This document shows positions 5,168 to 34,379 of a stretch of 64,000 nucleotides of DNA, piece by piece. Below the pieces are notes generated by a model that saw only the letters and a list, made by a program, of their open reading frames with translations, was not told where the DNA came from and ran no database searches. The position numbers and the translations under genes were made by a program. The first letter of the stretch is position 1, and every line of letters starts with the position of its first letter. The DNA is from Leucoraja ocellata (Eukaryota). Where the stretch lies: positions 186,001-250,000 of the forward strand of contig JAWMAR010000384.1 in NCBI GenBank assembly GCA_036785375.1. Reading direction: 5' to 3'.

Positions 5168-5263
5168 GTGAGTAGAGCGCAGAATAATTAATGCTGTATC
5201 GTTTTACATTCTGCTGTGTTTTTTTTCTAATGGTTCTGTATATTTATCTGTTATTTCTATCAG

Positions 5264-5602
5264 CTATAAACGCGGAGACTACCTTGACTCAGAGCCCGTC
5301 TATATCACAATCGCCGGGAACAACCGTGAAAATCACCTGTACACTGTCAGGGGGCAGCATCAGTAGCTTCTACACGAGCTGGTACTGGCAGAAGCCGGAC
5401 AGCAGCCCTGTCTTGGTGTGGTATCAAACCACCAGAGGCACCGGAATTCCAGACCGATTCACGGGATCCGTGGTCTCATCCACGAACCAAATGCATTTAA
5501 CCATCACCAACGTGCAATCGGAGGACGCGGCCGATTATTACTGTGCTGTGTGGGATGGCAGTACATACACCTTTGGGAGAGGAACCAAACTGAATCTAAG
5601 CA
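5264..5602 (+). CDS. IgL: Ig light chain cluster 1, germline-joined VJ exon (type I / sigma-cart-like), CDR3 AVWDGSTYT
   Basis: Polypyrimidine-CAG acceptor; V-set hallmarks (Cys, SWYWQK, DAADYYC) continuous with FGRGTKLNL; GTAAGT donor at 5603; no RSS between V and J. Confidence 0.95.
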
Positions 5603-7984
5603 GTAAGTAAAGTATTCACGGTGTGAAACAACGAATGGTTGAACTTGGGTTTTGCTTTCCATCACAAATCCTCGGTAGAAATATCCTATTAGACCTAAGT
5701 AGAACACAACGGGCCAGCCAGCATCTCCGGTAGACGTATAGATGGGCAATGTTTCGTGTCGGAACCTTTGCGAGAATTTCCCGAACGGAAATATCATCTT
5801 TCTTTGTGGACCAGAGATGCTGTCTGATCCGCTGGATTACTTCAGCACTTTGTGTTGTACTCAAGATGCCAACATTCGCGGTTCCTTGTTTCTCCTACGT
5901 GAAGTTGTGTTTTTTTAATAATCCTTTACCTCCATCCCTACAATACTCCGGGAAATCTGCGCTCATCTATCCGTGGCTTCTTGATCATCGTGGAATTTAA
6001 TGCCTTCGCAGACTGGCAGCTGTGCTTCAAAGTTGTTAAATTCTGGAATGACCTGAAAGTCTATTTCCCACTTTCTTCCCTGATGTTCACGAAACCTGCT
6101 CCTTTAACAGGAATACTGATTCTCTGATTTGAAGTATCCTCAAGTGGCGGGTTCCATGTGAGACTGCTGCTATTGGTCACTTTGCTTCAATATAAGCGGA
6201 ATGCAAACCAAAACTGTTGCCGTTACTTGAACAAATGTTTGGGAAATTATGAGATAACTTACAGTATATTGTGGACACGGATAATACCAACTCTGATAGT
6301 GGACCAAATAGAATCATTGGAAGCATCCAAAGGAAAGTTAATAAACATTTGGCAAGGGATGTCGGTGAATTTAAATGGGATATTTTTGGAATTGCAAATA
6401 CCCATTAGGGCAAATTGCGCGAAGTTGATTTCTGATCGTTTTAATGATACCATGAGGGTGAAGTGGCGTTTAGACAGGTTTACACGCGCTCCCTACAACA
6501 GCGCTAAAACTAATTGTCAGGGAAAAGGTTAAAAACAATATTTAAACGATTCGCACGGCAGCATTTCAATTCCCTTTGCGCGAAAGCGTGGAGGATTGTT
6601 GCAAGTCTGATTCAGCTCCGAAATGAGAAACAAGAGCAGAACCGGATTCTGGTTCATTTCTCGTTCAGCGAGCCATTGCCACCTTAGCTGATCACATTTG
6701 TGTGGATATGCCGTCAGACTCTTTGTACCCTTGACTCTTGTAGATCCTGCAAGGGATTTTGATGCTGGTTCTCCGATTGCCATCGAGAGTATGATATAGC
6801 AGAAAACGCAGACTGCTCATTATGCTGTTAAACATGATCCCTCTGAGTGTTGATTTTTTTTACGGGCAGGCAGTTGGTAGACCGACATGTCAAAAAAGCT
6901 TCAAAGAGCGAGACATCATTTTGCCATTTTCGGATAAATTAATGCAGAAATGGGCACACGTGTATACGAGGTTATTGCTGAATTGCCTTGAATCGTACGA
7001 TTGGAAGGAAATAGTACAGCGTCTTTAAATTCAGCATTAGCTTGAAATGTTTTTTAAAGTCCGAATATGTTGGATGTTAAACCCAGAGCTGTCTGGACAT
7101 GTGTCAGAAGGAATTTGAATCTGACCAAAACATTTCTTTAGTTTTACCTTTCATTTTTCTGCCCGCCACCATTATTGAATCATGAACTTTCTGGACGATG
7201 TGGAAGATTCACTAATAAGTAACATTCTAAAGACTGTTCCGGGATAGAATTGGGATTACTATTTAAACAAGCATTAATTTGGAAATGCTGCTCATTCTGC
7301 CAGGATTAGTTGTATTTACATTTTTTCTGCCCGTTTCCATGATCTGTAGAAAATCGTATGTTATATGTTTTATCAAACCTCGGATATACCCCCATAAAAA
7401 TTAACTTATCATGATTCTGCTGTATAAAATGAGGTTTATAAATGAACGGTACTTGTAAAGCCAGTGCAGTACACGGCCATAGAGCCACGGAGTTATGCAG
7501 CGGTGGAACAGTCCTTCAGTCCAGCTATTTCATGCCGACCGGGTTGCCCTACTTGAGCTGGTCCCATTTGCGCGTGTCAGGCCCATATCTCTTTGAACAT
7601 TTCTTATCCAAGTATTAATTCAAATGTTTATTTAAATGGTGTTATTGTACCTGCCTCATCAACTTCTTTGGGGAACTCATTCCATGGAGTCAACGCGTTA
7701 TGTGAACAAATGTTGCCCTGAACCTAAACCCACTAATTCTTCATTCTCCTACTACGGGGAAAAGACTCCCTGTGCTAACCCTATGTATTCCCCTCGCGAT
7801 TTTGTAACCGCCATGCGATCACCCTAAGGTCTTCTACACTCCAAGGACTAACGTCCTCGCATATCCAATCTATCCAACGAGTCGGCATATATCTTGCCTG
7901 GAGTCATTCCAGCTGAATCGATTCTGACTTTTAAATCAACTGATAAATAATTCATTTGTATTTATTTCAATTCTTTATTTCCAG

Positions 7985-8307
7985 GTCCGCGCTCCCCCAC
8001 CGTTTCCATTCTGGCGCCATCAATGGGTGAAGTCACCGCAAAAAGTACCGCCACCCTGGTGTGTTTGGTGAGCGGGTTCAACCCGGGCGTTGTGGACATT
8101 AAGTGGACCGTGGACGGCAGTGCGAGCAGTGACGGCGCTGCGACCAGCCGGGTCCAGCAGGAGAAGGACAACTCGTTCAGTGCGAGCAGTTACCTGACTC
8201 TGCCAGCCGCCTACTGGAACTCACACGATCTTTACTCCTGTGTGGTTAAACACGAAACCCAGGCAACCCCGATTAAGGCAGACATCGCCAGATCCAGTTG
8301 CCTCTAA
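7985..8307 (+). CDS. IgL: Ig light chain cluster 1, constant exon
   Basis: ttatttccAG acceptor, phase matches the VJ exon. C1-set motifs (ATLVCLV, FNPG, W, SSYLTL, YSCVVKH) and penultimate Cys (SSCL). Spliced CDS 708 nt = 235 aa. Confidence 0.95.
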
Positions 8308-8486
8308 TTCAAAGGATCAAATTCCCGATTTGCTCCATTTCTTTGTAAATTAATCCAATATTCAGATATGGAATGTTCGCTTTAACAGGGTATTTGTTCA
8401 AACGCAGCACGTGTGCATTTTGTTGCCGTGAATGCGCTGTTGGTATTTTACGATGAACTGAAAAACGATAATGTAACATTTAATGC

Positions 8487-8492
8487 AATAAA
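8487..8492 (+). terminator. Polyadenylation signal AATAAA, cluster 1
   Basis: AATAAA 180 nt after the stop, conserved in clusters 2 and 3. Confidence 0.6.
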
Positions 8493-10673
8493 ACAGATTA
8501 ATCTACTTACAATGCATCGTTGTCATTTTCTGTGCAAATGTCCTTGCCTTCAATAGAATAAAAACAATAATGTCCGATGATGCCAGTGTGTAGAAACTGG
8601 CGTTTTGTGAAACGTTGTTATATTTCAAATAAAGTGCGTGTTCATGATTGATCGTAGATCCATGTGTTAGGACAGTTGAAGGGACCGCTTGAACATACCC
8701 CCCTCACCCCCCCCCCCCCCCCCCCCCCCAGATAGAAGATATTAGGTGCAAACCAGTGTCTCCTATTTTGGATATCCCAAAAATACGGAAGCGCAGTCTT
8801 GGCATTACGCTAATATGCTTGAAGTACCCAAATGTGTCCAATCGTTCCGCACTAAATATCACAATATATCAGTGTTTATACCAGGAAAAACGCGATGACA
8901 AGTGTGGTTTGACGGATTAGTTAACCGCGGCATTACCGTGGTCTTTAATCAGCTCAACATTAATCACCAGAAGTGGTCATATATTTAAACAGTATAACGA
9001 GAGGAATAAATTTCAGGCTCGTAGGGGTGAGCCCAGTTGGCAGAGGAATGCGGGGGCTGGTGGGCAGGAGAACTCATCTCTGTACCGTAAAATAAAGTTG
9101 TCTGGCTGCTCACAATAACACAAGATGTAGCTTCGAGTAAATGTTCATCCAGCATGAAGTGGCGCTGCATTCGACGATGTTCTGTGGTCCCTGCAGTTAT
9201 CTTGCTCTTAGATGCTGAATCAATCCAAAAATATTGACATAATCTGCAGCACCTTTGGTATATTTACAGTTCTTGTCATTTATGGGGAGGCAAATGTAAA
9301 CTGCTTGATGTGAAAATGCTGGTATTGCCCAAGATGCAATTCGGTGCATTAAAACAATATATCAGGAGCCTACAGCTAGGATTAAGGTAAATGGAAACAT
9401 ATCAAAACGGATCCAGTTAGAGAGGGGCACAAGGCAAGGATGCTGTCTTTCTCTTACTCTCTTCGTTTTGTATATTGAACCCTTAGCACAAGCAATAAGG
9501 CAGAGAGAAGACCTGCAGGGGGTCAAAATGGGGGGAAAGAACATATAATTGGTCTTTTCGCTGATGATATCATTATTTTTCTTGAACGGCCAGATATATG
9601 TCTCCCAAATGTAATGAACCTATTTGAAACAAATGGATACTACTCAGGGTATAAACTGAATATAACAAAAACACAAATTATTTCATTCAATTATTCTCCA
9701 TCCCAACAAATCAGAGATGCATATAATCTGGAATGGAATTCTAAAACGATGCAGTATCTTGGTGTAACTATAACCAAAACACTTTCCAACTCGTTTGAAA
9801 CTAATTATAACAAAATTGAAGAAAACATCAAAAATGATGTTGAAAGGTGGTCGACCCTTCCTCTAGACTTCAGTGCCAGAATACAAACGGTAAAAATGAA
9901 TATCCTACCTAAACTACTATATTTATTCCAATCTCTCCCAATTAATGTCCCCCGAGATAAATCCATAGCCTGGGATAAAATGATCTCTAGATTCATTTGA
10001 AATAGCAAAAAAACAAGAATAAAACTAACAACACTTCAACTGCCGAAAAGCAAGGGTGGAATGGCTTTACCAAATCTGAGGAAATACATTTATGTAGCTC
10101 AACTCAGACCTCTGTTGGTGTAGACCTGATTATGAATCTCGATGGAAAGAAATTGAAAGGTAGATACAGGGTTACCAGATCCAGATTTTGGTGGGAGACT
10201 AATATCTGAGAGGGGCTTTGAGACACGCTATGGACCACATAGTAGCATTTACGTTAGAAATATGTAATGTTATAGTGGAAAAATACAAATTAAAAAGAGG
10301 GGTTCACGCATTGAAGTGGTTCGCATATGACTCAAAGTTTAACCAGGGGTGTATGATTCAAAATTCAAAGAATGGGCACAAAAAGGCATAATGGCAATGT
10401 ATACAGTTTCAGAAAATGGCGAGTTTATGAGCTTCCAAGATTTAAAGTCAAAGTCTGGTCTCGAAAACAATGATTTTTTTAGATACTTGCAATTAAGAGA
10501 CTACTTTACAAAAGAGGTAAGGCCAGAACTAGATGAAACTTCAAATAATGTGATCAAGGTGATTGTGGATGCATACAAACAGAAGGGGTCTCGGGTCAAC
10601 TCTGCTTTCTACCAAGCTCTGATGGGAAGCGGGGGAGAATCAACGCTCTACATAAAAACAAATTAGGAAGCAG

Positions 10674-10804
10674 NNNNNNNNNNNNNNNNNNNNNNNNNNN
10701 NNNNNNNNNNNNNNNNNNNNNNNNNNNNNNNNNNNNNNNNNNNNNNNNNNNNNNNNNNNNNNNNNNNNNNNNNNNNNNNNNNNNNNNNNNNNNNNNNNNN
10801 NNNN
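10674..10804. other. Assembly gap (N run)
   Basis: Run of N; the paralogous position in copy 2 is an (AAT)n(AAG)n microsatellite. Confidence 0.95.
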
Positions 10805-11255
10805 TTATATAGCACATTTATAGTCACTTTTCATTGACCCCAAAGTGCTTTACATAATTTAAAAATCAGTTCCATACAAAGCATAAAGATGGGTTAACAA
10901 AATAATAAAATGCATAAACAGGACACAACATGTAACATAACCATCCACCACAGCATTCATCACTGTGGTGGAAGGCACAAAAAATTTTGGCCGTCCTCCT
11001 CCATTTCCCCCCCCGTGGACAAGACCAGAGTCCAGAGTCCAGTCCAGGATCGGTCTTTCCTCACCGGAGACCGCGGCTTCAAGATTGTGTAGGCCGCAGG
11101 CCGGCGGTTGAGATTTAAAGTCCCCGCCGCAGCCAGAAGCACCGTAGACTGCAGGGCCGGCAGTTGAAGCTCCCCTCCAGGGGTGATGGTAAGTCCATGC
11201 CGGGCCCGCGGTAGAAGTTATCCGCGGGCCGGCAATGGCGGCTTCTTCTTCACCC
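10674..11255 (-). mobile_element. GC-rich non-autonomous retroelement with an L2-type 3' tail, nested in L1 (tail end falls in the N gap)
   Basis: Minus strand ends tgtaaagcactttg...aaatgtgctatataa; it interrupts L1 ORF2; complete paralog at 25098-25645. Confidence 0.7.
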
Positions 11256-12636
11256 ATAAGAAGAATGGTATCAAATGTGTGAAACACAATGTCCTTCCAC
11301 AAGCACACTAGTATGGAAAGAGTTTTTCTGGAAGAATCTATCTCGCTTTTTTTATAAGCAGCAAACTCGCTGTCCAACAACACTGTTGGAGGCTGTGTCG
11401 GAATACGGAGGCAGACCACTCGCATATTTTCTGGAACTGTGTAAAGATAAGGCCATACTGGGAAATTATTAATGCAGCTGTAAAAAATATCTTGGGTTAT
11501 AAAATTCCAAATACCTGCCATGTGATGTATCTGGGGCGTATTAAAGATATTGTAAAAATAAAAGATACATATTTGATTAAAGTTTTGCTTGCAGCAAGTA
11601 AGAAGGCCATTACCAGGCAGTGGCTTAATGAAAAAGTCCAAAACAGGAACAGTGGTTAGAAATTGTGCGAGACATCTTTAATATGGAGAAATTGACATAT
11701 TCCTTGAGAGTCAAGGAAAATTCATTTGAGAAGATCTGGGAATAATGGACCATTTATTTGAGCCATGACACCAATTAGATAAATGCCGAGCTAGATATGG
11801 GAATATCGCGTTATATAGAACTAGATGGTATGTTTGTATGATTATTGAATTATCTCCAGATAACTAATCAATGTAATGTTTTTGCTTTTTTTAAGTTGGT
11901 AAAGTGAACCACACGGTCTTATTCCATTTTTTTTTTTATTTACTTCTTTTATTTCCCCTATCTACTTATTTTTTTATTTTGATTGTTGTTTTTCTTACTT
12001 TGTTTTATTTATGGTGATGGTGTTGCACGGTTTTGTATATATCTCTTAAAAAACAAAGAAAATAAGTTGACCATTTGACCGCGTGGGCAGAAGATACTGA
12101 TGCAGTCTCCGATTATAACGGTAGATGGCGCTGCCGTACCTTACATCTGTGATGAAGCTCAACACGGCCAATTCTGAAATGGGTCAAACGCAATATTGTG
12201 TCTGAGGTCACGTACAGGCCAGACCAGCAATAATTGGATTATTTTCCCCTTGAAGGATATATTTGGGATCCAGTTGTTTTGTAATAATCAATCATACAAA
12301 CTGATGTTTCTTTTTAAATATTCCAGAAACTTAACATAATTTAGATTCCACACCTTCCCTGGTGAAATATGTCTGGATATGTGGTCAAGGCCTTTGCGTG
12401 ATGTGATTTCGGTTTGAAACCATTGCTTATCTTCACTTCCTTCACCTTTGCAGGGAGCGAATAGGAGGAATCTTTCACTGCATAAAAATATTCTTCTTTC
12501 ACAGTTTTCCGATTCAGCCACGGTTTAACCAAAGCTTGAGAGGTAACCTCTCCGCTTACTCGATACTTCGTTCTTTGAAACCTCACATATATCACAGGTT
12601 TTTGCTCACTACTCTGTCATATGCTGAGATAATAGA

Positions 12637-13045
12637 GCAGCTGGGCTTGTTCACTCTGAAGGATGAGAGGATATCTCATTGAAACATATACGATTGTTAA
12701 AGGGTTGGACACGCGAGAGGCAAAAAACATGTTCCCGATGTTGGAGGAGTCCAGAACCAGGGACCACAGTTTAAGAATAAGGACTAAGCCATTTAGAACG
12801 GAGACGAGGAAACACTTTTTCTCACAGAGAGTCGTGAGTGTGGAATTCTCTGCCTCAGAGGGCAGTGGAGGCAGGTTCTCTGGATGCTTTCAAGTGAGAG
12901 CTAGATAGGGCTTTTAAAAATAGCGGAGTCAGGGGATATGAGGAGAAGGCGGGAATGGGGTACTGATTGGGGATGATCAGCCATTGAATGGCGGTGCTGG
13001 CGCGAAGGGCCGAATGGCCTCCTCCTGCATCTATTATCTGTAGTC
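12637..13045 (+). mobile_element. CR1 3' end fragment (paralog ~27616-28025)
   Basis: MRGYLIETY...ESRTRDHSLRI...FFSQRVV plus CR1 tail gaagggccgaatggcct. Confidence 0.85.
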
Positions 13046-15506
13046 TATTATCTACTCTCGCGATATATCTTTCTACCTTGGCAGATGTGTGCTCATGAAC
13101 ACAAAGTCCCTCGGTTCCTGCGAACTTTGAACCCACATTGCCTCCCCCTCCCCCTCCCCCTCCCCCTCCACACACGAGGCAAACTATACAAGCTCATACT
13201 TCTCTGTGATAGGTTTCATCCATCATTTACCTACTCATTCTCCTGTCATATTGAAGTTTGAAATGCTCGCTGAGTACTCTCTCTCCCTCTCCTGCGTGTA
13301 AGCCGCTATTCCATCATGATTGTTGATGTGAATATATTGCTATTGGTACAGAACACAACTAGTTATGGGGATAGAGGAGAATTAAATCATTGGCCAAAAT
13401 GCTCGTGCATACTGAATGTGAATAATGAGAAGGGCCGAATGGCCTCCTCCTCCGGGAGAGACTTTAATATTTTTTTTGGACAAACATGAAGACAGTTGCA
13501 AACATGATTTTGTACATTTGAGTGGGTTTTGGTCCCAGGATTTTAGCCCCAGGTTTTCCATCTATCCAATTTGCCACGGTGTTGAGTGTCAATGAAAGTC
13601 ATAAAGATTTAAACAACGACGCATGACATAAATAACTGAACATTGTTCTCTTAAAAGAAACAAACAGAAAATCCAATTACAACTCATTTTAAACCGAGAA
13701 CTCTTGTTTGCAGAAACATCGCAGACACGTGGACTGTGACAGAAAATACACAGGAATAAATGATACATAAATTATACAAGTACATCAGAAAGAAAGAAAC
13801 AAGATTGCGGCCAAAAACATAATAATAATAAAACATGTCGATTGTGTACAAGTTTTGGGGCATAGTGTCCCGTTATGGAGGCAGAATTAGGGGTATGTTG
13901 GTCCTTCCAAAAGCTGGATAGTTGTAGGCAAGTAACTGTTGAACCGGGTGATGTATTTTCTGTAGTAGATCTGTAAAGGTTTGTTGGAGTATTTGGAGAC
14001 AAAAAGTATTTCTTTAAAATTCTTGGAAAGTAGAGGCATTGACGCTCCTTCACGGATGCAGTTGTTTGCTGGACCCGGGACACGTCATCCACAATGTTAA
14101 TGCTTAGAATTTAAAGCTGATAACTCTCTCCACCACTGCTCCATCAAATACTAACTGGCCTGAGGTCCCCGGACTTCCTCTTTCTGAAGTCAGCGACCAG
14201 TTCCGTCTTGTTGCTTTGGAGCGAAAGGTTGTTGTTCTGATACCACTCAACCAAGTGTTCCGTCACTCTTCTCTATGTTGACGCAGCACCATCAGTGATT
14301 CATCCAAACAGAATGGTGTTAGGGGTGGATCAATAGATGACTTTGGAGCTGTGGGTGTAAAGGAAGTAGAGCAGGGTGTAAAGCCGCAGCCTTGAGATGC
14401 GCTGTGTTGCTGGTCAATGGGGAGGAGATGATGTTCCCCATCCGCACTCGCTCACTTGAAGCTAATTCACCAAACAGTAAAACGGTGACTAATGTGATTG
14501 TAACCACTGAGCTGTAGTCCCATCCACCTCTGGTAACATATCACTACCCACCTTGTTTATTATGAATATTTCTACCTTTGGAAAAAAATAAAGACTGCTT
14601 CTACCACATTTTCAGAAACGTAATTGATGAGGCTTTCTCCATTCTGGGAGATGTGTTTTGTTTCTTCACTTTTTGAAGTAGGCATTTATTTTTGTGTAAC
14701 CGGTGACGTTTAGTTTTAGATTACCCCAGCCGAATTGTCCTCACCCTTCACATGCTGTTAAGACCCCGCATAATCACCTGTGCTTCAATTAAAGCAACTC
14801 TCATGCTTCAAACTGTCGAGCACTCACTCGTTGCAGATATGGGTATATTAGTAACCATTTTCTGAATTGCTTCAAAGGCATTTACATTTCAATACTCTGC
14901 TCGATACTGCGATGAAGTACAACTGAAACACTAAGACCCTTTCTCTTTTGTATTCGGTTTTTCTGGCGTTAGATGCTAACACTGTTACCTTTCCTAGGCA
15001 GTTGTTGTACCTCTTTCTAGCCTGTGGCGAATCCTCACCAACAATTCGAAATAATTCTGCATCTCAAAACACTGAAAATTGTCAAAATGTAAATATGAAG
15101 GGCCTCGACCCGAAACGTTAACCATACCTTCTCTCCAGAGATGCTGCCTGTCCCTCTGAGTTACCCCAACGTTTTGTGTCTATATTGTAAAGAACATTCT
15201 TTTGTATCACTTACCCGGCCAAAATTGACATTTCACATGTTCCCACATCCCGCATTTACCAGGCCTTTGCCCATTCACTGGAACTATCCACATCCACGGT
15301 GGCCTTGTTTGGTTCTTCATGTCATTAACAAATTCAACAGCCAACATTTTTTTTTTAGCATTTTTGGAAATTGTGGCTGCAGCAGTGATCTATAAGGCAC
15401 ATCAGTTTTTGCATCTTTCCAACCCGAATTTTGCCTATTTATGCGTGTTCTATGTTTCAAACGAATCGCCCAATGTTCTTTTCTTAACCATAAATACCAA
15501 GGTTCG

Positions 15507-16598
15507 TAGAAAATAGGTGCAGGAGTAGGCTATTCGGCCCTTCGAGCAGCACCGCCATTCAGCATGATCATGGCTGATCATCCAAAATCGGTATCCCGTT
15601 CCTGCTTTCTCCCCATATCCATTGGGTCCATCAACCCTAAAAGCTATATCTAACTCTCTGTTGAATACAACCAGTGATTTGGCCTCCACTGCCTTCTGTG
15701 GCAGAAAATTCCACAGATTCACAACTCTCTGCGTAACAAAAGTGTTTCCGCATCTCTGTCCTAAATGGCCTACCATTTTTTAAAACTAGGACGCCTGGTT
15801 CTGGATTCCCCATCATCGGGAACATTTTACATGCATCTAGTGTATCCAATCCCTTAAGAATGTTATATGTTTCTATAAGAACCCCTCTCATCCAAAATGC
15901 CAGTGCATATAAGCCCACTCGATCATATGTCAGTTCCACCATCCCGGGAATTAATCTGGTGAACCGACGTTGCACTCCCTCAATAGCAAGAATGTCCTTC
16001 CTCAAATGTAGAGAACAAAACTGCACATAATACTCCAGGTGTGGTCTCACTAGGGCCCTGTACCACTGCCGTCGGACCACCTTGTCCCTATACTCAAATC
16101 CTCTCGCAATGAAGGCCAACGTGCCATTCGATTTTCTTCACTGCCGACTGCACCTGCAAGCTTTCTTTCCGTGACTGGTGTTCAAGGCCACACAGTTCTC
16201 GTTTCACCTCCCCTTTCCCAAATTTGACACCATTCAGATAATAATCTGCCTTCCTGTTTTTGTCACCAAAGTGGATAACCTCACATTTATCCACGTTATA
16301 CTGCATCTGCCATGCATCTGCCCATTTACACATCCTATCCAAGTCACCCTGCTGCCTCATAGCATCCTCCATGCAGCTCACACTGTCACCCAGCTTTGTG
16401 TGATCAGCAAACTTGGAGATGTGCATTTAATTCCTTCATCTTAATCGTTAATATATATAGTTAATAACTGAGGTCCCAACACTGAGCCTTGCGGCACTAG
16501 TCACTGCCTGCCATTCTGAAAAGGACCCGTTAATTCCTACTCTTTGCTTCCTGTCTGCCATATAGTTCACCATCCATGTCAATACCATACCTCCAATA
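15507..16598 (-). mobile_element. CR1 LINE 3' fragment (copy 2)
   Basis: Paralog of 1523-2614. Confidence 0.9.
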
Positions 16599-18981: not shown

Positions 18982-19040
18982 TGTCACGTGGATAAAGATT
19001 TGCATGAATAATTAATAATTAGTGACTGAAGACTTTAAAA
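18982..19040 (+). promoter_or_regulatory. Ig light-chain promoter, cluster 2 (CACGTG 18985-18990, ATTTGCAT 18998-19005)
   Basis: Same module as cluster 1. Confidence 0.85.
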
Positions 19041-19104
19041 GAGAAACTTGGAAATGGCTCAAAACCGCGCTTGTGCAGCAAAATATTCCCTTATAACCTT
19101 CAAC

Positions 19105-19150
19105 ATGGCTGTATGGGTTTGGGTTCTCGCCTTGGTGACCTGTTTCCACT
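19105..19150 (+). CDS. IgL: Ig light chain cluster 2, leader exon (MAVWVWVLALVTCFH)
   Basis: Signal peptide; GTGAGT donor at 19151. Confidence 0.9.
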
Positions 19151-19248
19151 GTGAGTAGAGCGCAGAATAATTAATGCTGTATCGTTTTACATTCTGCTGT
19201 GTTTTTTTTTTCTAATGGTTCTGTATATTTATCTGTTATTTCTATCAG

Positions 19249-19593
19249 CTATAAACGCGGAGACTACCTTGACTCAGAGCCCATCTATATCACAATCGCC
19301 GGGAACAAACGTGAAAATCACCTGTACACTGTCAGGGGGCAGCATCGGTAGCTTGTACACGAGCTGGTACTGGCAGAAGCCGGACAGCAGCCCTGTTTTC
19401 GTGTGGTATGAAACCACCAGAGGCACCGGAATTCCAGACCGATTCACGGGATCCGTGGACTCATCCACGAACCAAATGCATTTAACCATCACCAACGTGC
19501 AATCGGAGGACGCGGCCGATTATTACTGTGCTGTGCGGGATGGCAATACAGTCACATTCACCTTCGGGAAAGGAACCAAACTGAATCTAAGCA
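19249..19593 (+). CDS. IgL: Ig light chain cluster 2, germline-joined VJ exon, CDR3 AVRDGNTVTFT
   Basis: CAG acceptor, open V-J frame ending FGKGTKLNLS, GTAAGT donor at 19594. Confidence 0.95.
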
Positions 19594-21988: not shown

Positions 21989-22311
21989 GTCCGCGCTCCC
22001 CCACCGTTTCCATTCTGGCGCCATCAATGGGTGAAGTCACCGCAGAAAGTACCGCCACCCTGGTGTGTTTGGTGAGCGGGTTCAACCCGGGCGCTGTGGA
22101 CATTAAGTGGACCGTGGACGGCAGTGCGAGAAGTGACGGCGCTGCGACCAGCCGGGTACAGCAGGAGAAGGACAACTCGTTCAGTGTGAGCAGTTACCTG
22201 ACTCTGCCAGCCGCCTACTGGAACTCACACGATCTTTACTCCTGTGTGGTTAAACACGAAACCCAGGCAACCCCGATTAAGGCCAACATCGCCAGATCCA
22301 GTTGCCTCTAA
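21989..22311 (+). CDS. IgL: Ig light chain cluster 2, constant exon
   Basis: Intact C1-set domain. Spliced CDS 714 nt = 237 aa. Confidence 0.95.
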
Positions 22312-22490
22312 TTCAAAGGATCAAATTCCCGATTTACTCCATTTCTTTGTAAATTAATCCAATATTCAGATATGGAATGTTCGCTTTAACAGGGTATTTG
22401 TTCAAACGCAGCACGTGTGCATTTTGTTGCCGTGAATGCGCTGTTGGTATTTTACGATGAACTGAAAAGCGATAATGTAACATTTAATGC

Positions 22491-22496
22491 AATAAA
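22491..22496 (+). terminator. Polyadenylation signal AATAAA, cluster 2
   Basis: Position paralogous to 8487. Confidence 0.6.
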
Positions 22497-25095
22497 ACAG
22501 ATTATTCTAGTTACGATGCATCGTTGTCATTTTCTGTGCAAATGTCCTTGCCTTCAATAGAATAAAAACAATAATGTCCGATGATGCCAGTGTGTAGAAA
22601 GTGGCATTTTGTGAAACTTTGTTATATTTCAAATAAACTGCGGTTTCATGATTGATCGTAGATCCAGGTGTTAGGACAGTTGAAGGGACCGCTTGCAACC
22701 CCCTCTCACATGTATCCACCGATCTATCACTTGGCCAGCTGTATCGCACCTCATATCTATTTTACACATTTACCTCCTCTGTTCCAGGGGCACGACCTGA
22801 AATTATGCCTCGCAATTCTAATCAGCTGTTGCCTGACCCGGCAAGTCATGTGGAGTCCAATGGCGAAGTCTTGTTTTGCTGGATTTGTCCGGTATTATGA
22901 CCACCTCTCTGATCGAATTTACCTCTTCAATCCACTTCTTGTCAGACTTTTCCATGATCTACATTGATATTCTACACCCAGTTGCAAGTCGAACATATCC
23001 ATGCTTTGTCCCCATTTTCCTACCCCCGCGAGGCTTCCTTTACTTTTGATGGGCGACGGGTATTTTGGAAATACTGGTCAGCGTTTAGTGTTTCATCAAC
23101 GCAGTATTCCTCAACCTCCATACGAGCTTGGATATTTGGCCCAGTAAGCTCCACGGCGCCACGTGGTTTATTTACAAGAGGTAGTTCAAACAGGTACTAT
23201 AACAACATTTAATAAACATTTGGACAGGTACATTGATAGGAAAGGTTTAGAGGGATACGGGCCACCGCGGGCAGGTGGGAATTGTTGGGCCGAAGGGCAT
23301 TTCCCTACTGAATAACTCCTAGTGATACTTTTAAAAAATGAAGATAGGTGCAGGAGTAGGCATTTCGGCCCTTCGAGCCTGCACCGCCTATCAATATGAT
23401 CATGGCTGATACATGCTTACAGCGGATCTGCAGAAATGATCGGGACCTGTACAAAAAGAAGCCCAGTTGGCAGAGGAATGCGGGGGCTGGTGGGCAGGAG
23501 AACTCATCTCTGTACCGTAAAATAAAGTTGTCTGGCTGCTCACAATAACACAAGATGTAGCTTCGAGTAAATGTTCATCCTGCATGAAGTGGCGCTGCAT
23601 TCGACGATGTTCTGTGGTCCCTGCAGTTATCTTGCTCTTAGATGCTGAATCAATCCAAAAATATTGACATAATCTGCAGCACCTTTGGTATATTTACAGT
23701 TCTTGTCATTGATGGGGAGGCAAAGGTAAACTGCTTGATGTGAAAATGCTGGTATTGCCCAAGATGCAATTCGGTGCATTAAAACAATATATCAGCAGCC
23801 TACAGCTAGGATTAAGGTAAATGGAAACATATCAAAACGGATCCAGTTAGAGAGGGGCACAAGGCAAGGATGCTGTCTTTCTCCTACTCTCTTCGTTTTG
23901 TATATTGAACCCTTAGCACAAGCAATAAGGCAGAGAGAAGACCTACAGGGGGTCAAAATGGGGGGAAAGAACATATAATTGGTCTTTTCGCTGATGATAT
24001 CATTATTTTTCTTGAACGACCAGATATATGTCTCCCAAATGTAATGAACCTATTTGAAACAAATGGATACTACTCAGGGTATAAACTGAATATAACAAAA
24101 ACACAAATTATTTCATTCAATTATTCTCCATCCCAACAAATCAGAGATGCATATAATCTGGAATTCTAAAACGATTCAGTATCTTGGTGTAACTATAAGC
24201 AAAACACTTTCCAACTTGTTTGAAACTAATTATAACAAAATTGAAGAAAACATCAAAAAGGATGTTGAAAGGTGGTCGACCCTTCCTCTAGACTTCAGTG
24301 CCAGAATACAAACGGTAAAAATGAATATCCTACCTAAACTACTATATTTATTCCAATCTCTCCCAATTAATGTCCCCCGAGATAAATCCATAGCCTGGGA
24401 TAAAGTGATCTCTAGATTCATTTGGAATAGCAAAAAAACAAGAATAAAACTAACAACACTTCAACTGCCGAAAAGCAAGGGTGGAATGGCTTTACCAAAT
24501 CTGAGGAAATACTTTTATGTAGCTCAACTCAGACCTCTGTTGGTGTAGACCTGATTATGAATCTCGATGGACAGGGTTACCAGATCCAGATTTTGGTGGG
24601 AGACTAATATCTGAGAGGGGCTTTGAGACACGCTATGGACCACATAGTAGCATTTACGTTAGAAATATGTAATGTTGTAGTGGAAAAATACAAATTAAAA
24701 AGAGGGGTTCACGCATTGAAGTGGTTCGCATATGACTCAAAGTTTAACCAGGGGTGTATGATTCAAAATTCAAAGAATGGGCACAAAAAGGCATAATGGC
24801 AATGTATACAGTTTCAGAAAATGGCGAGTTTATGAGCTTCCAAGATTTAAAGTCAAAGTCTGGTCTCGAAAACAAAGATTCTTTTAGATACTTGCAATTA
24901 AGAGACTACTTTACAAAAGAGATAAGGCCAGAACTAGATGAAACTTCAAATAATGTGATCAAGGTGATTGTGGATGCATACAAACAGAAGGGGTCTCGGG
25001 TCAACTCTGCTTTCTACCAAGCTCTGATGGGAAGCGGGGGAGAATCAACGCTCTACATAAAAACAAAATAGGAAGCAGAATTAAAGATTCAGATA

Positions 25096-25097
<2 letters not shown>

Positions 25098-25181
<84 letters not shown>

Positions 25182-25645
25182 TTATTTATATAGCACATTT
25201 ATAGTCAAATTTCATTGACCCCAAAGTGCTTTACATCATTTAAAAATCAGTTCCATACAAAGCATAAAGATGGGTTAACAAAATAATAAAATGCATAAAG
25301 AGGACACAACATGTAACATAAACATCCACCACAGCATTCATCACTGTGGTGGAAGGCACAAACAATTTTAGCCATCCTCCTCCATCCCCCCCCCCCCCCC
25401 CCCCGTGGACAAGACCAGAGTCCAGAGTCCAGTCCAGGATCGGTCTTTCCTCACCGGAGACCGCGGCTTCAAGATTGTGTAGGCCGCAGGCCGGCGGTTG
25501 AGATTTAAATTCTCCGCCGCAGCCAGAAGCACCATAGACTGCAGGGCCGGCGGTCGAAGCTCCCCTCCAGGGGCGATGGTAAGTCCATGCCGGGGCCGCA
25601 GTAGAAGTTATCCGCGGGCCGGCAATGGCGGCTTCTTCTTCCCCC
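25098..25645 (-). mobile_element. GC-rich non-autonomous retroelement with an L2-type tail ending in (CTT)n(ATT)n
   Basis: Interrupts L1 ORF2 between ...AELKIQI and EEWYQMCE; compound microsatellite at ~25100-25180. Confidence 0.7.
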
Positions 25646-26430
25646 ATAAGAAGAATGGTATCAAATGTGTGAAACACAATGTCCTTCCACAAGCACACTA
25701 GTATGGAAAGTGTTTTGCTGGAAGAATCTATCTCGCTTTTTTTTATAAGCAGCAAACTCACTGTCCAACAACACTGTTGGAGGCTGTGTGGGAGTACAGA
25801 GGCAGACCACTCGCATATTTTCTGGAACTGTGTAAAGATAAGGCCATACTGGGAAAATGTTAATGCAGCTGTAAAAAATATCTTGGGTTATAAAATCCCA
25901 AATACCTGCCATGTGATGTATCTGGGGCGTATTAAAGATATTGTAAAAATAAAAGATACATATTTGATTAAAGTTTTGCTTGCAGCAAGTAAGAAGGCCA
26001 TTACCAGGCAGTGGCTTAATGAAAAAGTCTAAAACAGGAACAGTGGTTAGAAATTGTGCGAGACATCTTTAATATGGAGAAATTGACATATTCCTTGAGA
26101 GTCAAGGAAAATTCATTTGAGAAGATCTGGGAATAATGGACCATTTATTTGAGCCATGAGACCAATTAGATAAATGCCGAGCTAGATATGGGAAGATTGC
26201 GTTATATAGAACTAGATGGTATGTTTGTATGATTATTGAATTATCTCCAGATAACTAATCAATGTAATGTTTTTTCTTTTTTTAAGTTGGTAAAGTGAAC
26301 CACGGTCTTATTCCAATTTTTTTTTTTAATTTACTTCTTTTATTTCCCCAATCTACTTATTTTTTTATTTTGATTGTTGTTTTTCTTACTTTGTTTTATT
26401 TATGGTGATGGTGTTGCACGGTTTTGTATA

Positions 26431-27016
26431 TCTATTATCTATTATATATATAAAACTCAAATCCGTCCGTCTGCCTGCAGTACGGATCCCTTCCTGCCTT
26501 TCGATTCGTGCCCGATACTCGCAGATGTCCAATCGGAATGGCCGATGCTCGCAGATGTCCAATCGGAATGGATTCATTTGCATGTACGGCTGCCGGCTGC
26601 ATTTCTTCCTTTGATTCATTGCCACGCCCAATCCAGACGCTCAATCTCCGAGATATTTTCCATTTCGGTAGAGATTTCGCTTTTCTTTCTAAGTATCCGC
26701 TCCTCATTTCATTTCGTCGTGTTGAAGTACATGTTTTTAGTCAAATCCTTCTCCCCACCCCACCCCCCCACACCCCCAAGTATTTCACAAATAAACAGGC
26801 TTCTCCATCTACATGTCAGCTTCCAACACACTTCGAAACAAAGTTGCAAGAGAGGAACACTGAACTTTTCACTGCTGCAGCAGGCAGGGGAGGGCTGCAA
26901 TCTTACATTTGGGAACGGGCTCAGTTCCAATGGAGGAGACGGGTGCATGGTGGAATATTGGGTTGGGGGATCACACCATTGGGGGAGCAGACCCAACGGG
27001 TCTGCACTTGGTCTAG
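26431..27016 (+). mobile_element. Non-autonomous Helitron (586 bp)
   Basis: 5' TC(TATTATCTATTATATATATAAAAC); 3' hairpin GCAGACCC-AAC-GGGTCTGC (26987-27005) then CTAG; inserted at A|T with no TSD; empty site in copy 1 at 12039/12040. Confidence 0.92.
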
Positions 27017-30000
27017 TATCTCTTAAAAAACAAAGAAAATAAGTTGACCATTTGACCGCGTGGGCAGAAGATACTGAAGCAGTCTCCGATTATAACGGTA
27101 GATGGCGCTGCCGTACCTTACATCTGTGATGAAGCTCAACACGGCCAATTCTGAAATGGGTCAAACGCAATATTGTGTCTGAGGTCACGTACAGGCCAGA
27201 CCAGCAATAATTGGATTATTTTCCCCTTGAAGGATATATTTGGGATCCAGTTGTTTTGTAATAATCAATCAAACAAACTGATGTTTCTTCTGAAATATTC
27301 CAGACACTTAACATAATTTAGATTCCACACCTTCCCTGTTGAAATATGTCTGGATATGTGGTCAAGGCCTTTGCGTGATGTGATTTCGGTTAGAAATCAT
27401 TGTTTATCTTCACTTCCTTCACCTTTGCAGGGAGCGAATAGGAGGAATCTTTCACTGCATAAAAATATTCTTCTTTCACAGTTTTCCGATTCAGCCACGG
27501 TTTAACCAAAGCTTGAGAGGTAACCTCTCCGCTTACTCGATACTTCATTCTTTGAAACCTCACATATATCACAGGTTTTTGCTCACTACTCTGTCATATG
27601 CTGAGATAATAGAGCAGCTGGGCTTGTACACTCTGAAGGATGAGAGGATATCTCATTGAAACATATACGATTGTAAAGGGTTTGGACACGCGAGAGGCAA
27701 AAAACATGTTCCCGATGTTGGAGGAGTCCAGAACCAGGGACCACAGTTTAAGAATAAGGACTAAGCCATTTAGAACGGAGACGAGGAAATACTTTTTCTC
27801 ACAGAGAGTGGTGAGTGTGGAATTCTCTGCCTCAGAGGGCGATGGAGGCAGGTTCTGGATGCTTTCAAGTGAGAGCTAGATAGGGCTCTTAAAAAAAGCG
27901 GAGTCAGGGGATATGGGGAGAGGGCGGGAATGGGGTACTGATTGGGGATGATCAGCCATTGAATGGCGGTGCTGGCGCGAAGGGCCGAATTGCCTCCTCC
28001 TGCATCTATTATCTATAGTCTATTGTCTACTCTCGCGATATATCTTTCTACCTTGGCAGATGTGTGCTCATGAAACCAAAGTCCCTCGGTTCCTGCGAAC
28101 TTTGAACCCACATTGCCTCCCCCTCCCCCTCCCCCTCCCCTCCACACACGAGGTGAATATATTGCTGTTGGTACAGAACACAACTAGTTATGGGGATAGT
28201 GGAGAATTAAATAATTGGCCAAAATGCTCGTGCATACTGAATGTGAATAATGCGAATGTTACCTCCGGGAAAGACTTTAATATTTTTTTTGGACAAACAT
28301 GAAGACAGTTGCAAACAGGATTTTGTACATTTGAGTGGGTTTTGGTCCCAGGATTTTAGCCCCAGGTTTTCCATCTATCCAATTTGCCAAGGTGTTGAGT
28401 GTCAATGAAAGTCATAAAGATTTAAACAACGACGCATGACATAAATAACTGAACATTGTTCTCTTAAAAGAAACAAACAGAAAATCCAATTACAACTCAT
28501 TTTAAACCGAGAACTCTTGTTTGCAGAAACATCGCATACACGTGGACTGTGACAGAAAATACACAGGAATAAATGATATATCCATTATACATGTACATCA
28601 GAAAGAAAGAAACAAGATTGCGATGAAAAACATAATAATAAAAAAAACACGTCGATTGTGTACAAGTTTTGGGGCATAGTGTCCCATTAGCGAGGCAGGA
28701 TTAGGGGTATGTAGGTCCTTCCAAAAGCTGGATAGTTGTAGGCAAGTAACTGTTGAACCGGGTGATGTACTTTCTGTAGGAGATCTGTAAATGTTTGCTG
28801 GAGTATTTGGAGACAAAAAGTATTTCTTTAAAATTCTTTGAAAGTAGAGGCATTGACGCTCATTCGCGGATGCCGTTGTTTGCTGGACCCGGGACACGTC
28901 ATCCACAATGTTAATGCTTCGAATTTAAAGCTGATAACTCTCTCCACCACTGCTCCATCAAATACTAACTGGCCTGAGGTCCCCGGACTTCCTCTTTCTG
29001 AAGTCAGCGACCAGTTCCGTCTTGTTGCTTTGGAGCGAAAGGTTGTTGTTCTGACACCACTCAACCAAGTGTTCCGTCTCTCTTCTCTATGTTGACGCAG
29101 CACCATCAGTGATTCATCCAAACAGAATGGTGTTGGGGGTGGATCAATAGATCTTTGGAGCTGTGGATGTAAAGGAAGTAGAACAGGGTGTAAAGCGCGC
29201 AGCCTTGAGATGCACTGTGTTGCTGGTCAATGGGGAGGAGATGATGTTCCCCATCCGCACTCGCTCACTTGAAGCTAATTCACCAAACAGTAAAATGGTG
29301 ACTAATCTGATTGTAACCTCTGACCTGCAGTCCCCTTCCACCTCTGGTAACATATCACTACCCCACCTTGTTTATTATGAATATTTCTACCTTTGGAAAA
29401 AAATAAAGACTGCGTCTACCACATTTTCAGAAACGTAATTGATGAGGCTTTCTCCATTCTGAGAGATGTGTTTTGTTTCTTCACTTTTTGAAGTAGGCAT
29501 TTATTTTTGTCTAACCGGTGACGTTTAGTTTTAGATTACCCCAGACGAATTGTCCTCACCCTTCACATGCTGTTAAGACCCCGCATAATCACCTGTGCTT
29601 CAATTAAAGCAACTCTCATGCTTCTAACTGTCGAGCAATTCCTCATAAGACAACTCACTCGTTGCAGATATGGGTCTATTAGTAACCATTTTCTGAATTG
29701 CTTCAAAGGCATTTACATTTCAATACTCTGCTCGATACTGCGATGAAGTACAACTGAAACACTAAGACCCTTTCTCTTTTGTATTCGGTTTTTCTGGCGT
29801 TAGATGCTAACACTGTTACCTTTCCTAGGTAGTTGTTGTGCCTCTTTCTAGCCTGTGGCGAATCCTCTTCAACAAATCGAAATAATTCTGCATCTCAAAA
29901 CACTGAAAATTGTCAAAATGTAAATATGAAGGGCCTCCACCCGAAACGTTAACCATACCTTCTCTCCAGAGATGCTGCCTGTTCCTCTGAGTTACCTCAA

Positions 30001-30336
30001 CTTTTTGTGTCTATATTGTAAATAACATTCTTTTGTATCACTTATCCTGCCAAAATTGACATTTCACATGTTCCTACATCCCGCATTTACCAGGCCTTTG
30101 CCCAATCACTGGAACTATCCACATCCACAGTGGCCTTGTTTCGTTCTTCATGTCATTAACAAATTCAACAGCCAACATTTTTTTTTAGCATTTTTAGAAA
30201 TTGTGGCTCCAGCAGTGATCTATGAGGCACATCAGTTTTTGCATCTTTCCAACCTGAATTTTGCTTATTTATGCGTGTTCTATGTTTCAAACTAATCACC
30301 CAATGTTCTTTTCTTAACCATAAATACCAAGACTCG

Positions 30337-31393
30337 TAGAAAATACGTGCAGGAGTAGGCTATTCGGCCCTTCGAGCAGCACCGCCCTTCAACATGATCA
30401 TGGCTGATCATCCAAAATCGGTATCCCGTTCCTGCTTTCTCCCCATATCCCTTGGTTCCATCAGCCCTAAAAGCTATATCTAACTCTCTGTTGAATACAA
30501 CCAGTGATTTGGCCTCCACTGCCTTCTGTGGCAGATAATTCCACAGATTCACAACTCTCTGCGTAAAAAAAGTGTTTCCGCATCTCTGTCCTAAATGGCC
30601 TACCATTTTTTAAAACTAGGACGCCTGGTTCTGGATTCCCCATCATCGGGAACATTTTACATGCATCTAGTGTATCCAATCCCTTAAGAATGTTATATGT
30701 TTCTATAAGAACCCCTCTCATCCAAAATTCCAGTGGATATAAGCCCACTCGATCATATGTCAGTTCCACCATCTCGGGAATTAATCTGGCGAACCGACGT
30801 TGCACTCCCTCAATAGCAAGAATGTCCTTCCTCAAATTTAGAGAACAAAACTGCACACAATACTCCAGGTGTGGTCTCACTAGGGCCCTGTACCACTGCC
30901 GTCGTACCATCTTGTTCTTATACTCAAATCCTCTCGCTATGAAGGCCAACGTGCCATTCGATTTTCTTCACTGCCGACTGCACCTGCAAGCTTTCTTTCA
31001 TTTACTGATGTTCAAGGCCACCCAGTTCTGGTTTCACCTCCGCCTTCCTGTTTTTGCCACCAAAGTGGATAACCTCACATTTATCTACGTTATACTGCAT
31101 CTGCCATGCACCTGCCCACTCACCCATCCTATCCAAGTCACCCTGCAGCCTCAGAGCACCCTCCATGCAGCTCACACTGTCACCCAGCTGTGTGTGATCA
31201 GCAAACTTGGAGATGTTGCATTTAATTCCTTCATCTTAATCGTTAATATATATTGTTAATAACTGAGGTCCCAACACTGAGCCTTGCGGCACTAGTCACT
31301 GCCTGCCATTCTGAAAAAGACCCGTTAATTCCTACTCTTTGCTTCCTGTCTGCCATATAGTTCACCATCCATGTCAATACCCTACCCCCAATA
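30337..31393 (-). mobile_element. CR1 LINE 3' fragment (copy 3)
   Basis: Paralog of 1523-2614. Confidence 0.9.
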
Positions 31394-33768
31394 TTACCAC
31401 ATTATTTACCAGATCAACCTTAGATTCCTCACCTTATGCCTGCTCGAAATTATATCTGCCTGGCATGGTACTTCTTCAAAGCCATTCGGTAAATTTCGGA
31501 AACGTCCTTCATAAATTCATAAATTGTAGGACCAGAATTAGGCCTTTCAGCTCACTAATTCTACCCGGCCATTTTATCACGCTTGATTTATCTCTCCCTC
31601 TCAGCCCCTCGCAGCCCCATTCTCCTGACTTATCCCCATAACCCTTAACACTCTTACTAATCACCAACCAATCAATCTGCACCTTAAAAATATCCATTGA
31701 GTTGGCTTCCACAGCGTTCTGAAGCAATGGATTCCACAGATTTACCACCCTCTGACTAAAGGAATTCCTCCTCATCACCTTTTGTAAATGTACGTCCTTT
31801 TATTCTGAGGCTATAACCTTTGGTCCTTGACTCCTCCGCTCGTCGAAACATCCACTCCACATCCACTCTATCCAGGAGGGGAGGGGGCGCTCACCTAAAG
31901 TCTACTATCAATTCCACCGTCTTAAGAACATTGAGCCCCAGATTGTGACGAAGGCACCAGGACGCCAGCTGTGTTACTTCCTGTCTGTAGGCAGATTCCT
32001 CCTCAACCTGGATCAGTCCAATCGGGGTTGTGTCGCCCCTGGGATCCCTGGGATCACCCTCGTAAACCTGCTCTGGACCCTCTCCAACGCCAGCTCACCC
32101 TTCCTCAGATTGGAGCCCAAAACTGTTCACAACACTACAAATGCGGACTGACCAGTGCCTGATATAGGCTCAGCAATACATCCCTGGTTTTGTATTTTGT
32201 TTTTGTGTTCTGGCCCTCTCGAAAGAAATGCTAGCATTGCATTTGCCTTCCCGACTACAGACTTGTAAATTCACTTTTGGGGAATCCTGCACCAGCACTC
32301 CCAAACCCCTTTGCACCTCTCGTTTCTGAATGTTCTCTCTTTCTCAACACCATTTTGACTTTTGCGAGATGACCTTATTGATCATTTTGTCAATACCCTT
32401 TATATCGTTTTATTAACAGCTTGCAATATTTCTGTCTTTCTTCCTTTCTGAATGAAAATGATCACCAAGGAATGTCCATGGTCGTTTTGAAACTCAAAGC
32501 AATAAATTCAGCGCTGCAATGGGATGAATTAAGATTCTAGAATGAAATACAATACATCTTAACACCCTGTCAGCCCGTGGCTCTATCAACTTCCTAATGA
32601 TTGCAACGTTTGTGAGTTTGTTCCTTGCTTCCACTTCCATGTCTGCAGCCGTTTCTGGGATGTTGTCCGTGTTCTGTATTAGAGCACACCGAGGATATTT
32701 TTCAGTTTACATTTTCTGTCATCTCCATATTCCCCTTTACTTTTACCCCAGATCCCCTACTTCATTGTCCAGTCTGTAGGTTGTAATAAAAATGACAGCA
32801 ATTCTTACTATCATGCATTAACACTTCTAGCTGACGTCCAACAATACTTTAATATACTAATTGAACGCTCCGACATATTATTTTACAATTCGCTGTTCAA
32901 TTTTCTGATTTCCATTCAACTTTGCTCATAGACTTTTTTTGTGCTCTTAGTTTAATGCTGTCTTTAACATGTTGAGATAATCGTGGATGTTTTATTTCTT
33001 GTGGCACGCGTGTAGTTTCTGTCTTTTGAATGATTACTTTGAAAGCTTCCGTCTACATCTGGAATTTCCGATATTTTAATTGAATTTGCTGGTGGATTTC
33101 AAGTTCAAGTTCACATTTAGTGTCACATACACGCACCAATTGTGATACAGTGATATTTGAGTTACCGTGCAGCCCATTCAAGTAAAAATAACACAATACA
33201 TTCAGCTGGCTCCGTTTCGTGGCATGCATTTACCCCTATACAGCATTCCCTCATCCTCACATTTCTACTTTAATTAATGATGTATTGTTCTTCCCATGAA
33301 CTTCAATTCGACCGTCTGAAGGGTCGTTCTCTCGCATTGCGATGAAGACATATTAACAGACTCTCCTGTGCCGTTTAATTTCACCATTAAAGTGGACACT
33401 TTAAATCAATGAAGGGGCTAGTGGTGGAATGGTGCCTTGCGATATTACACGACTGCGAATTATTTGTAGGAAAAGGACAAAGGTGTTATTTTATAATTAT
33501 TTGGGAGCTTAAGGTGATTAGTGCAAAGTCTGTACAGTGCCACCATTCAACACAGCTGACACCGTTTACTCAGTAAATAAGAGCCTGCTCTCACACAACA
33601 GTTCCCGTCTGAGTCTCAGAGCTTCTCTCCCCCTCCCCCCGCCGCCGTTGAGTTCACCGTTGTCTGCTATTCTCCTCCCACTTAAAACAACATGAATATT
33701 TCTTTCTCCCAAAGGGCTGGAGCTGCAGAAATAATTTTTTACCCCGAGCCAATAATTCAGTGAATCGG

Positions 33769-33827
33769 TGTCACGTGGATAAAGATTTGCATGAATAATT
33801 AATAAATAGTGACTGAAGACTTTAAAA
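33769..33827 (+). promoter_or_regulatory. Ig light-chain promoter, cluster 3 (CACGTG 33772-33777, ATTTGCAT 33785-33792)
   Basis: Same module as cluster 1. Confidence 0.85.
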
Positions 33828-33891
33828 GAGAAACTTGGAAAGGGCTCAAAACCGCGCTTGTGCAGCAAAATATTCCTGTATCACCTTCAAC

Positions 33892-33937
33892 ATGGCTGTA
33901 TGGGTTTGGGTTCTCGCCTTGGTGACCTGTTTCCACT
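33892..33937 (+). CDS. IgL: Ig light chain cluster 3, leader exon (MAVWVWVLALVTCFH)
   Basis: Signal peptide; GTGAGT donor at 33938. Confidence 0.9.
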
Positions 33938-34034
33938 GTGAGTAGAGCGCAGAATGATTAATGCTGTATCGTTTTACATTCTGCTGTGTTTTTTTTTCTA
34001 ATGGTTCTGTATATTTATCTGTTATTTCTATCAG

Positions 34035-34379
34035 CTATAAACGCGGAGACTACCTTAACTCAGAGCCCGTCTATATCAAAATCGCCGGGAACAACCGTGA
34101 AAATCACCTGTACACTGTCAGGGGGCAGCATCAGTAGCTTGTACACGAGCTGGTACTGGCAGAAGCCGAGCAGCAGCCCTGTCTTCGTGTGGTATGAAAC
34201 CTCAAGAGGCACCGGAATTCCAGACAGATTCACGGGATCCGTGGAATCATCCACGAACCAAATGCATTTAACCATCACCAACGTGCAATCGGAGGACGCG
34301 GCCGATTATTACTGTGCTGTGTGGGACGAAAGTAAAAAAAAATTCACATTCGGGAGAGGAACCAAACTGAATCTAAGCA
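34035..34379 (+). CDS. IgL: Ig light chain cluster 3, germline-joined VJ exon, CDR3 AVWDESKKKFT
   Basis: Open V-J frame and canonical splice sites. The frame depends on an A9 homopolymer in CDR3. Confidence 0.93.

Follow-up and report, generated by a model that had tools for sequence, protein, structure and literature searches.

How do light chains whose V and J segments come already joined, and which therefore forgo junctional diversity, stay useful? This old question is raised by a 64,000-nucleotide stretch of the genome of the skate Leucoraja ocellata (GenBank assembly GCA_036785375.1, contig JAWMAR010000384.1, positions 186,001 to 250,000 of the forward strand; hereafter the window), where near-identical tandem immunoglobulin (Ig) light-chain units carry different third complementarity-determining regions (CDR3s). 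The units are lambda clusters whose V and J are already fused in the germline. We consider it likely that diversifying selection keeps the variety of CDR3, with crossover and gene conversion homogenising and reshuffling the remainder of each unit. The array allows selection and recombination between copies to be tested, at the level of haplotypes, against activity of the recombination-activating gene (RAG) system or of AID in the germline.

Divergence and replacement changes in the binding loops

The window is the part of contig C384 that holds copies a4 to a6; C384 carries a1 to a6 in all, and a second contig, C531, carries b1 to b6. These 12 copies, six on each contig, are the ones at 94-100% identity among the 25 candidates of a genome search, all 25 of which were scored, and searches with the constant (C) exon and the J intron returned the same 12 among the top candidates scored. 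The VJ exons are joined and open in all 12 copies, which hold 11 distinct CDR3s: a3 and a4 are the sole pair to share one, and none is common to both contigs. The flanks of C384 and C531 are collinear, at 97-98.8% identity in stretches sampled across about 130 kb, although every unit differs by at least 2.2% from its nearest counterpart across the contigs. The contigs are likely two haplotypes, but RAG1, which is intact, is present as a single copy in the assembly, so that they may instead represent a recent segmental duplication.

An earlier sequence-only reading of the window had described the ~14-kb units as almost identical and had listed three CDR3s. Both descriptions are borne out, as the units of the window differ by 2.5-4.0% pairwise substitutions over 9.5-12.9 aligned kb, and the sequences and coordinates of the three CDR3s (Table 1) are all as claimed. 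It had also set the comparison of CDR with intron divergence beforehand as one of two refuting tests, and there the CDRs far exceed the intron. Over the 12 copies, mutations per site come to 0.88 in CDR3, 0.67 in CDR2 and 0.25 in CDR1, against 0.06-0.13 in the frameworks (about 0.10 overall), 0.109 in the J-C intron and 0.062 in the C exon, so that CDR3 diverges about eight times as much as the intron. The 33 nt of CDR3 hold 29 mutations and 11 haplotypes, both above the maxima of 3,932 overlapping non-coding segments of the same length (22 mutations, 10 haplotypes), and the maximum among 2,181 intron segments is 11 mutations. Variable sites make up 22/33 of CDR3 against 227/2213 of the intron (p=3e-14), and 10/30 of CDR1 and CDR2 together (p=0.0006), whereas the framework does not differ from the intron (27/270, p=1). 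The intron itself has a shoulder next to J, with 37/208 variable sites versus 190/2005 in the rest (p=0.0004).

The changes in the CDRs are also of a different kind, with 38 replacement to 4 silent changes against 17 to 10 in the framework (p=0.012), and codon-model omega is 2.09 for the CDRs, 2.06 for CDR3 and 0.61 for the framework. The claim of positive selection thus stands as far as the focus of replacements on the CDRs is concerned, but an omega above 1 is borderline only. The sign of selection first proposed, the ratio of replacement to silent changes between copies 1 and 2 of the window, did not survive. The count was right, since with the gap placed as originally the two copies differ by exactly 10 replacements and 3 silent substitutions (11:3 with the other placement), but the VJ exon has 251.5 replacement (N) sites to 75.5 silent (S) sites, so that the 10:3 ratio equals the neutral expectation and alone shows nothing (proportions of sites changed, pN 0.040 and pS 0.040). 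We rejected the whole-exon ratio as proof of selection; whole-exon omega is no different from 1 either (p=0.41). What holds between these two copies is the location of the changes, said to be mostly in or near the CDRs: 6 of the 10 replacements fall in CDRs, more than the CDR share of sites would give (p=0.003).

Elsewhere in the locus, two further joined lambda subfamilies vary in another pattern, their CDR1 and CDR2 diverging 2-4 times as much as the intron and their CDR3 only 1.5-1.6 times. These six copies each were drawn from 18 stretches, leaving out two divergent copies and four stretches without the standard VJ motif (two of the four are joined genes with a variant motif and two show no V). 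Since the sister subfamilies vary mainly in CDR1 and CDR2, the excess tracks the loops and not the junction as such. An in-frame 3-nt indel in CDR2, where no junction exists, is found in 3 of the 12 copies of the main array.

Mosaic copies and the age of the CDR3 types

Recombination has left its mark on the array. The four-gamete test gives a minimum number of recombination events (Rm) of 56 over 158 informative sites, and incompatibility between near sites is 0.305 versus a minimum of 0.422 among 500 permutations. Distances in CDR3 correlate weakly with those in V (r=0.33) and do not follow the distal intron or C (r -0.06 to 0.02), which answers the question, left by the sequence-only reading, of whether the CDR3 tree matches the flank tree. 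Copies a3 and a4 differ at 9/211 V sites up to framework region 3 (FR3) and at 24 of ~3,100 sites from FR3 to the 3' untranslated region (UTR) (p=0.0001); they carry one and the same CDR3-J-C block behind two distinct V fronts. Copies a4 and b2 are close in V (1.1%) and b2 and b5 are identical in C and UTR (0%), with very different CDR3s in either pair. The copies are mosaics.

Comparison with other skates was made on proteins only (5 Amblyraja, 2 Leucoraja and 6 Rhinoraja records), so that convergence is possible. A tree of framework and C protein sequence sets the 12 copies and the two Leucoraja records apart from the five Amblyraja records (96/88), while a tree of the C domain only does not resolve Amblyraja from this genome. 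CDR3, on the other hand, differs by 5.5 aa within this genome versus 4.5 aa against Amblyraja; the nearest CDR3 to that of a2 is an Amblyraja one, and CDR3s of the KK type and of the CxxSTY type are found in both. These protein comparisons point to concerted evolution with retained CDR3 types, and part of the CDR3 variation may be old, predating the present near-identity of the units, rather than fresh.

Besides convergence, several points weigh against selection as the keeper of this variety. The likelihood-ratio test of omega versus 1 is borderline (p=0.051-0.061 for the CDRs, p=0.10-0.14 for CDR3), and the omega tests take no account of recombination. Silent diversity is raised in CDR3 as well (pairwise pS 0.22 vs pN 0.25; 3 silent changes on 6.5 sites, p=0.035). 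One upstream non-coding segment has a nucleotide diversity (pi) of 0.225 versus 0.246 for CDR3, but only 6 haplotypes, and distances in the intron shoulder next to CDR3 follow those of CDR3 only weakly (r=0.17, p=0.09). A neutral explanation, in which CDR3 is unconstrained and lies in a hotspot of local mutation or slippage or in an old divergent tract, with no selection needed, draws on the omega that is not significantly above 1, on the uneven non-coding diversity along the unit and on the silent changes raised in CDR3 and in the adjoining 200 bp of intron. This last feature would follow if selection protected old variants from being homogenised, and is compatible also with a local hotspot. 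However, unconstrained sites should equal the intron (0.11 per site) and not bear 1.09 replacement changes per site, as CDR3 does; 29 of its 32 changes are replacements in a count that favors silent paths; all length changes among the 12 copies are in frame; and CDR3 is not hypervariable in the two sister subfamilies. We regard the neutral explanation as unlikely.

A pathway can be envisioned for the preferred reading, selection on the loops within a homogenising array. An ancient V-J join would have been inherited through duplication and then amplified, with new CDR3s supplied by ordinary point mutation and in-frame indels. Unequal crossover and conversion between tandem copies would homogenise the flanks and reshuffle the loops, while selection would shield binding-loop variants from homogenisation, so that some CDR3 types could be older than the present near-identity of their flanks. 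Exchanges with breakpoints near FR3 or in the J-C intron would pair a CDR3 with a different CDR1 and CDR2 or a different C. As in shark lambda, somatic hypermutation in B cells would then refine the pre-made repertoire. Only tentatively do we extend this to a RAG-free shuffling of V and J over evolutionary time, in which crossovers in FR3 and the J-C intron would join old, balanced CDR3 lineages, some of them cross-genus, to differing sets of CDR1 and CDR2; no CDR3 would then be common to both chromosomes of an animal, and every skate would inherit a personal polymorphic light-chain repertoire resembling the major histocompatibility complex (MHC).

The V-J junction

The junctions can be aligned codon by codon, as had been claimed, and differ stepwise, so that the second refuting outcome named beforehand, junctions that do not align and bear N/P signatures, is not seen either. 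CDR3 has 11 codons in 10 of the 12 copies, all 11 codons vary, and steps of 1-2 nt link six copies. Variation confined to one junction, with trimming and N or P additions, was not seen in the 12 copies, P nucleotides being not directly scorable without split ancestors. The 9-aa CDR3 had been explained by an in-frame 6-nt indel between ACA repeats; the in-frame gap of 6 nt stands, but its place is ambiguous, and a position after the STY motif common to the 11-aa CDR3s of a2, b2 and b3 fits as well or better. CDR3s of 9 residues are seen in Amblyraja too (1 of its 6 records in the subfamily) and in 8/8 Rhinoraja domains, and 5-, 9- and 11-aa classes recur across sharks and rays. Because joined lambda-type homologues recur across sharks, rays and chimaera, the V-J join probably dates far back and did not arise shortly before the present amplification.

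Independent RAG-mediated V-J joins in germ cells have a documented precedent in a shark: in the accessible part of Lee et al. 2000 (PMC2193156), split and joined copies of nurse shark kappa (NS4) coexist and at least five independent RAG-like joins are inferred. The skate array likewise has germline-joined VJ among very similar paralogs, and the intact RAG1 and the failure of CDR3 to follow the flank tree would fit such joins. Against them stand the equal lengths and small steps of the CDR3s and the absence of any unjoined form, as each of the 20 J motifs detected across 420 kb of the two contigs sits in a joined gene, the 12 close J-intron and 12 close C matches among the top candidates all lie in joined copies, and a scan of these 420 kb of C384 and C531 gave no match resembling a recombination signal sequence (RSS) at any junction. 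Moreover, all cartilaginous-fish lambda genes studied are reported as germline-joined in the accessible parts of three papers (PMC4279169, PMC5192425, PMC12227049). Independent joins in this array are thus highly improbable, indeed nearly refuted, and the original proposal fares better, that one ancestral join was amplified and then diversified by selection or micro-conversion, both of which find support here.

The RSS scan gave 13 weak matches, nine of them one recurring match over the leader splice donor. In the window it lies at 5133-5170 on the minus strand, and also at 19153 and 33940, with a perfect heptamer, a 22-bp spacer and two mismatches in the nonamer. Present in 9 of the 12 copies, it covers the leader exon and splice donor and is probably due to chance.

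Changes could also have come from AID-type hypermutation leaking into germ cells and altering the V exon. The CDRs and the J-proximal intron, on which the changes focus, are the zone covered by somatic hypermutation, and 4 of the 5 hotspot G/C sites in CDR3 vary, although not significantly (p=0.24). Yet the enrichment at WRC/AGY-type hotspots that the sequence-only reading had proposed to look for is absent: over the VJ exon, 7/42 G/C positions in WRC/GYW motifs are variable versus 24/132 other G/C sites (odds ratio 0.90, p=0.67), a comparison with low power for CDR3 alone. Nor are tandem substitutions in excess, with one same-partition pair in the exon versus seven in the distal intron, and diversity is not raised in the framework or the leader intron. 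A leak of this kind is quite improbable.

Lambda identity, known systems and neighboring genes

The top protein matches are skate lambda chains (85-88%), then ray and shark lambda chains, and human lambda-6-type chains figure among the nearest V domains of solved structure. Over its full length the chain shares 93% identity with a Leucoraja light-chain record, 66-67% with sandbar shark lambda and 62% with a chimaera light chain. Judged by these matches, most of whose lambda names are automatic annotations, the window genes are intact VJ-C clusters of skate Ig lambda (type II), their V and J already joined in the germline. The window has four Ig light-chain VJ exons, V running in frame into J in each, and three of them belong to the tandem units (Table 1), each made of octamer, leader, VJ and C exon, with V and C alternating 1:1, an open frame of 236-238 aa from leader through C, and spacings of 13,985 and 14,786 bp. 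In copy 1 the VJ frame is open through YYC..FGxG up to the donor site.

Table 1. Features of the window, with copies numbered in the order of the units.
Feature	Positions	Strand	Remarks
Three tandem ~14-kb VJ-C units	1..37649	+	Self-BLAST; array extends upstream with three more units
Ig octamer promoter motif, copy 1	5015..5022	+	Found upstream of 4/4 window VJ genes
Leader exon, copy 1	5122..5167	+	Joint 5167 to 5264 (GT..AG) in contigs of 2/3 RNA-like runs
Germline-joined VJ exon, copy 1 (a4)	5264..5602	+	CDR1 5350-5373, CDR2 5425-5430
CDR3, copy 1, AVWDGSTYT, 9 aa	5545..5571	+	DNA-identical to adjacent upstream copy a3, outside the window
J-proximal intron, copy 1, raised diversity, block-like haplotypes	5603..5820	+	pi 0.070 vs 0.026 in rest of intron
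Lambda constant exon, copy 1	7985..8307	+	
Octamer, copy 2	18998..19005	+	
Leader exon, copy 2	19105..19150	+	
Germline-joined VJ exon, copy 2 (a5)	19249..19593	+	CDR3 19530-19562, AVRDGNTVTFT, 11 aa
Lambda constant exon, copy 2	21989..22311	+	
Octamer, copy 3	33785..33792	+	
Leader exon, copy 3	33892..33937	+	
Germline-joined VJ exon, copy 3 (a6, last of the array)	34035..34379	+	CDR3 34316-34348, AVWDESKKKFT, 11 aa
Lambda constant exon, copy 3	36631..36953	+	
First cluster of second joined lambda subfamily, ~70% identical, 6-aa CDR3	53073..56888	+	

Both introns are skipped at GT..AG in contigs from three presumed-RNA runs of two studies, the joint of copy 1 from 5602 to 7985 appearing in all three; the contigs were aligned at 85% likeness, and most are not assignable to a single copy. 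One RNA-like contig from another sample, however, has 0 differences over 5475-5602, including the 9-aa CDR3, and is joined to C. By our reading, a contig of another organism has an 11-codon CDR3 with a b3-like ending. It is hardly credible that the differences between copies stem from errors of assembly, from chimeric copies of the repeat or from B-cell DNA with somatic mutations. Such errors are invited by tandem repeats of 14 kb on two contigs that are likely, though not surely, haplotypes, but errors would not favor replacements in CDRs, the exact RNA-like contig comes from another sample, and copy b1 matches an independent GenBank protein (AAA59379.1) at 111/112 VJ residues.

Two peculiarities of single copies may be added. 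Copies a2, b2 and b3 (L003, L004 and L006) have an extra Cys at CDR3 position 3 in place of Trp, found also in two Amblyraja/Leucoraja records, with no partner Cys seen in the V domain. The C exon of b4 (L010) begins out of frame when translated at fixed length, and its match spans 327 and not 326 bases, which suggests a 1-nt insertion or an assembly error.

The array does not differ in kind from the cartilaginous-fish Ig lambda (type II, NS3) clusters, which likewise hold a single V, J and C each, the V and J being germline-joined; what sets it apart is an array resolved on two contigs, with 11 CDR3s in 12 copies and mosaic units. Multigene families can escape concerted evolution at ligand-binding sites, in an MHC-like patchwork of homogenised flanks, a replacement peak and mosaic copies, and the skate lambda array differs from these in that the protected site is a former V(D)J junction. 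CDR-focused replacement without rearrangement has a precedent in another skate isotype, type I (sigma-2 / sigma-cart), for which the accessible part of Anderson et al. 1995 (PMC2192082) describes at least 89 clusters, all joined, with differences concentrated in the CDRs, replacements exceeding neutral substitutions, and expression. The principle is thus already published for type I, and the gain here is one of detail and not a new system: mosaic units, no CDR3 common to the contigs and possible trans-genus CDR3 types. The haplotype-level mosaic and the possible trans-genus types are a modest addition to a known kind of gene. A keyword search that covered few subscription journals turned up no publication that treats conversion or selection in the lambda arrays of skates, which does not show that none is in print.

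Along the units of the main array, the upstream flank (1930-3970 in the window and equivalents) has a pi of 0.085, far above the intron, and the units fall into classes (a3, b1, b4 and b5 versus the rest) that span both contigs and do not match the CDR3 types. Beyond the array, the second joined lambda subfamily (~70%) extends over C384:239195-274668 and C531:952287-971531 with CDR3s of 6, 8 and 9 aa; its copy L017 loses the J frame after FGKG, likely by a frameshift or sequencing error. L016 (C384:283109-283424) has a joined VJ with a variant YHC motif and an upstream frame unlike a normal FR1, and is possibly a pseudogene. Further lambda subfamilies lie at C384:714000-848404 on the minus strand versus C531:978894-1166400 on the plus strand, at different distances, and the opposite orientation suggests an inversion polymorphism or a misassembly. 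In these subfamilies CDR1 and CDR2 vary more than CDR3, and one copy, L092, has a stop in FR1. Within the window, inverted repeats of 160-200 bp at 56118-56324 and 58038-58196, 84-88% self-complementary, are probably remnants of small transposons.

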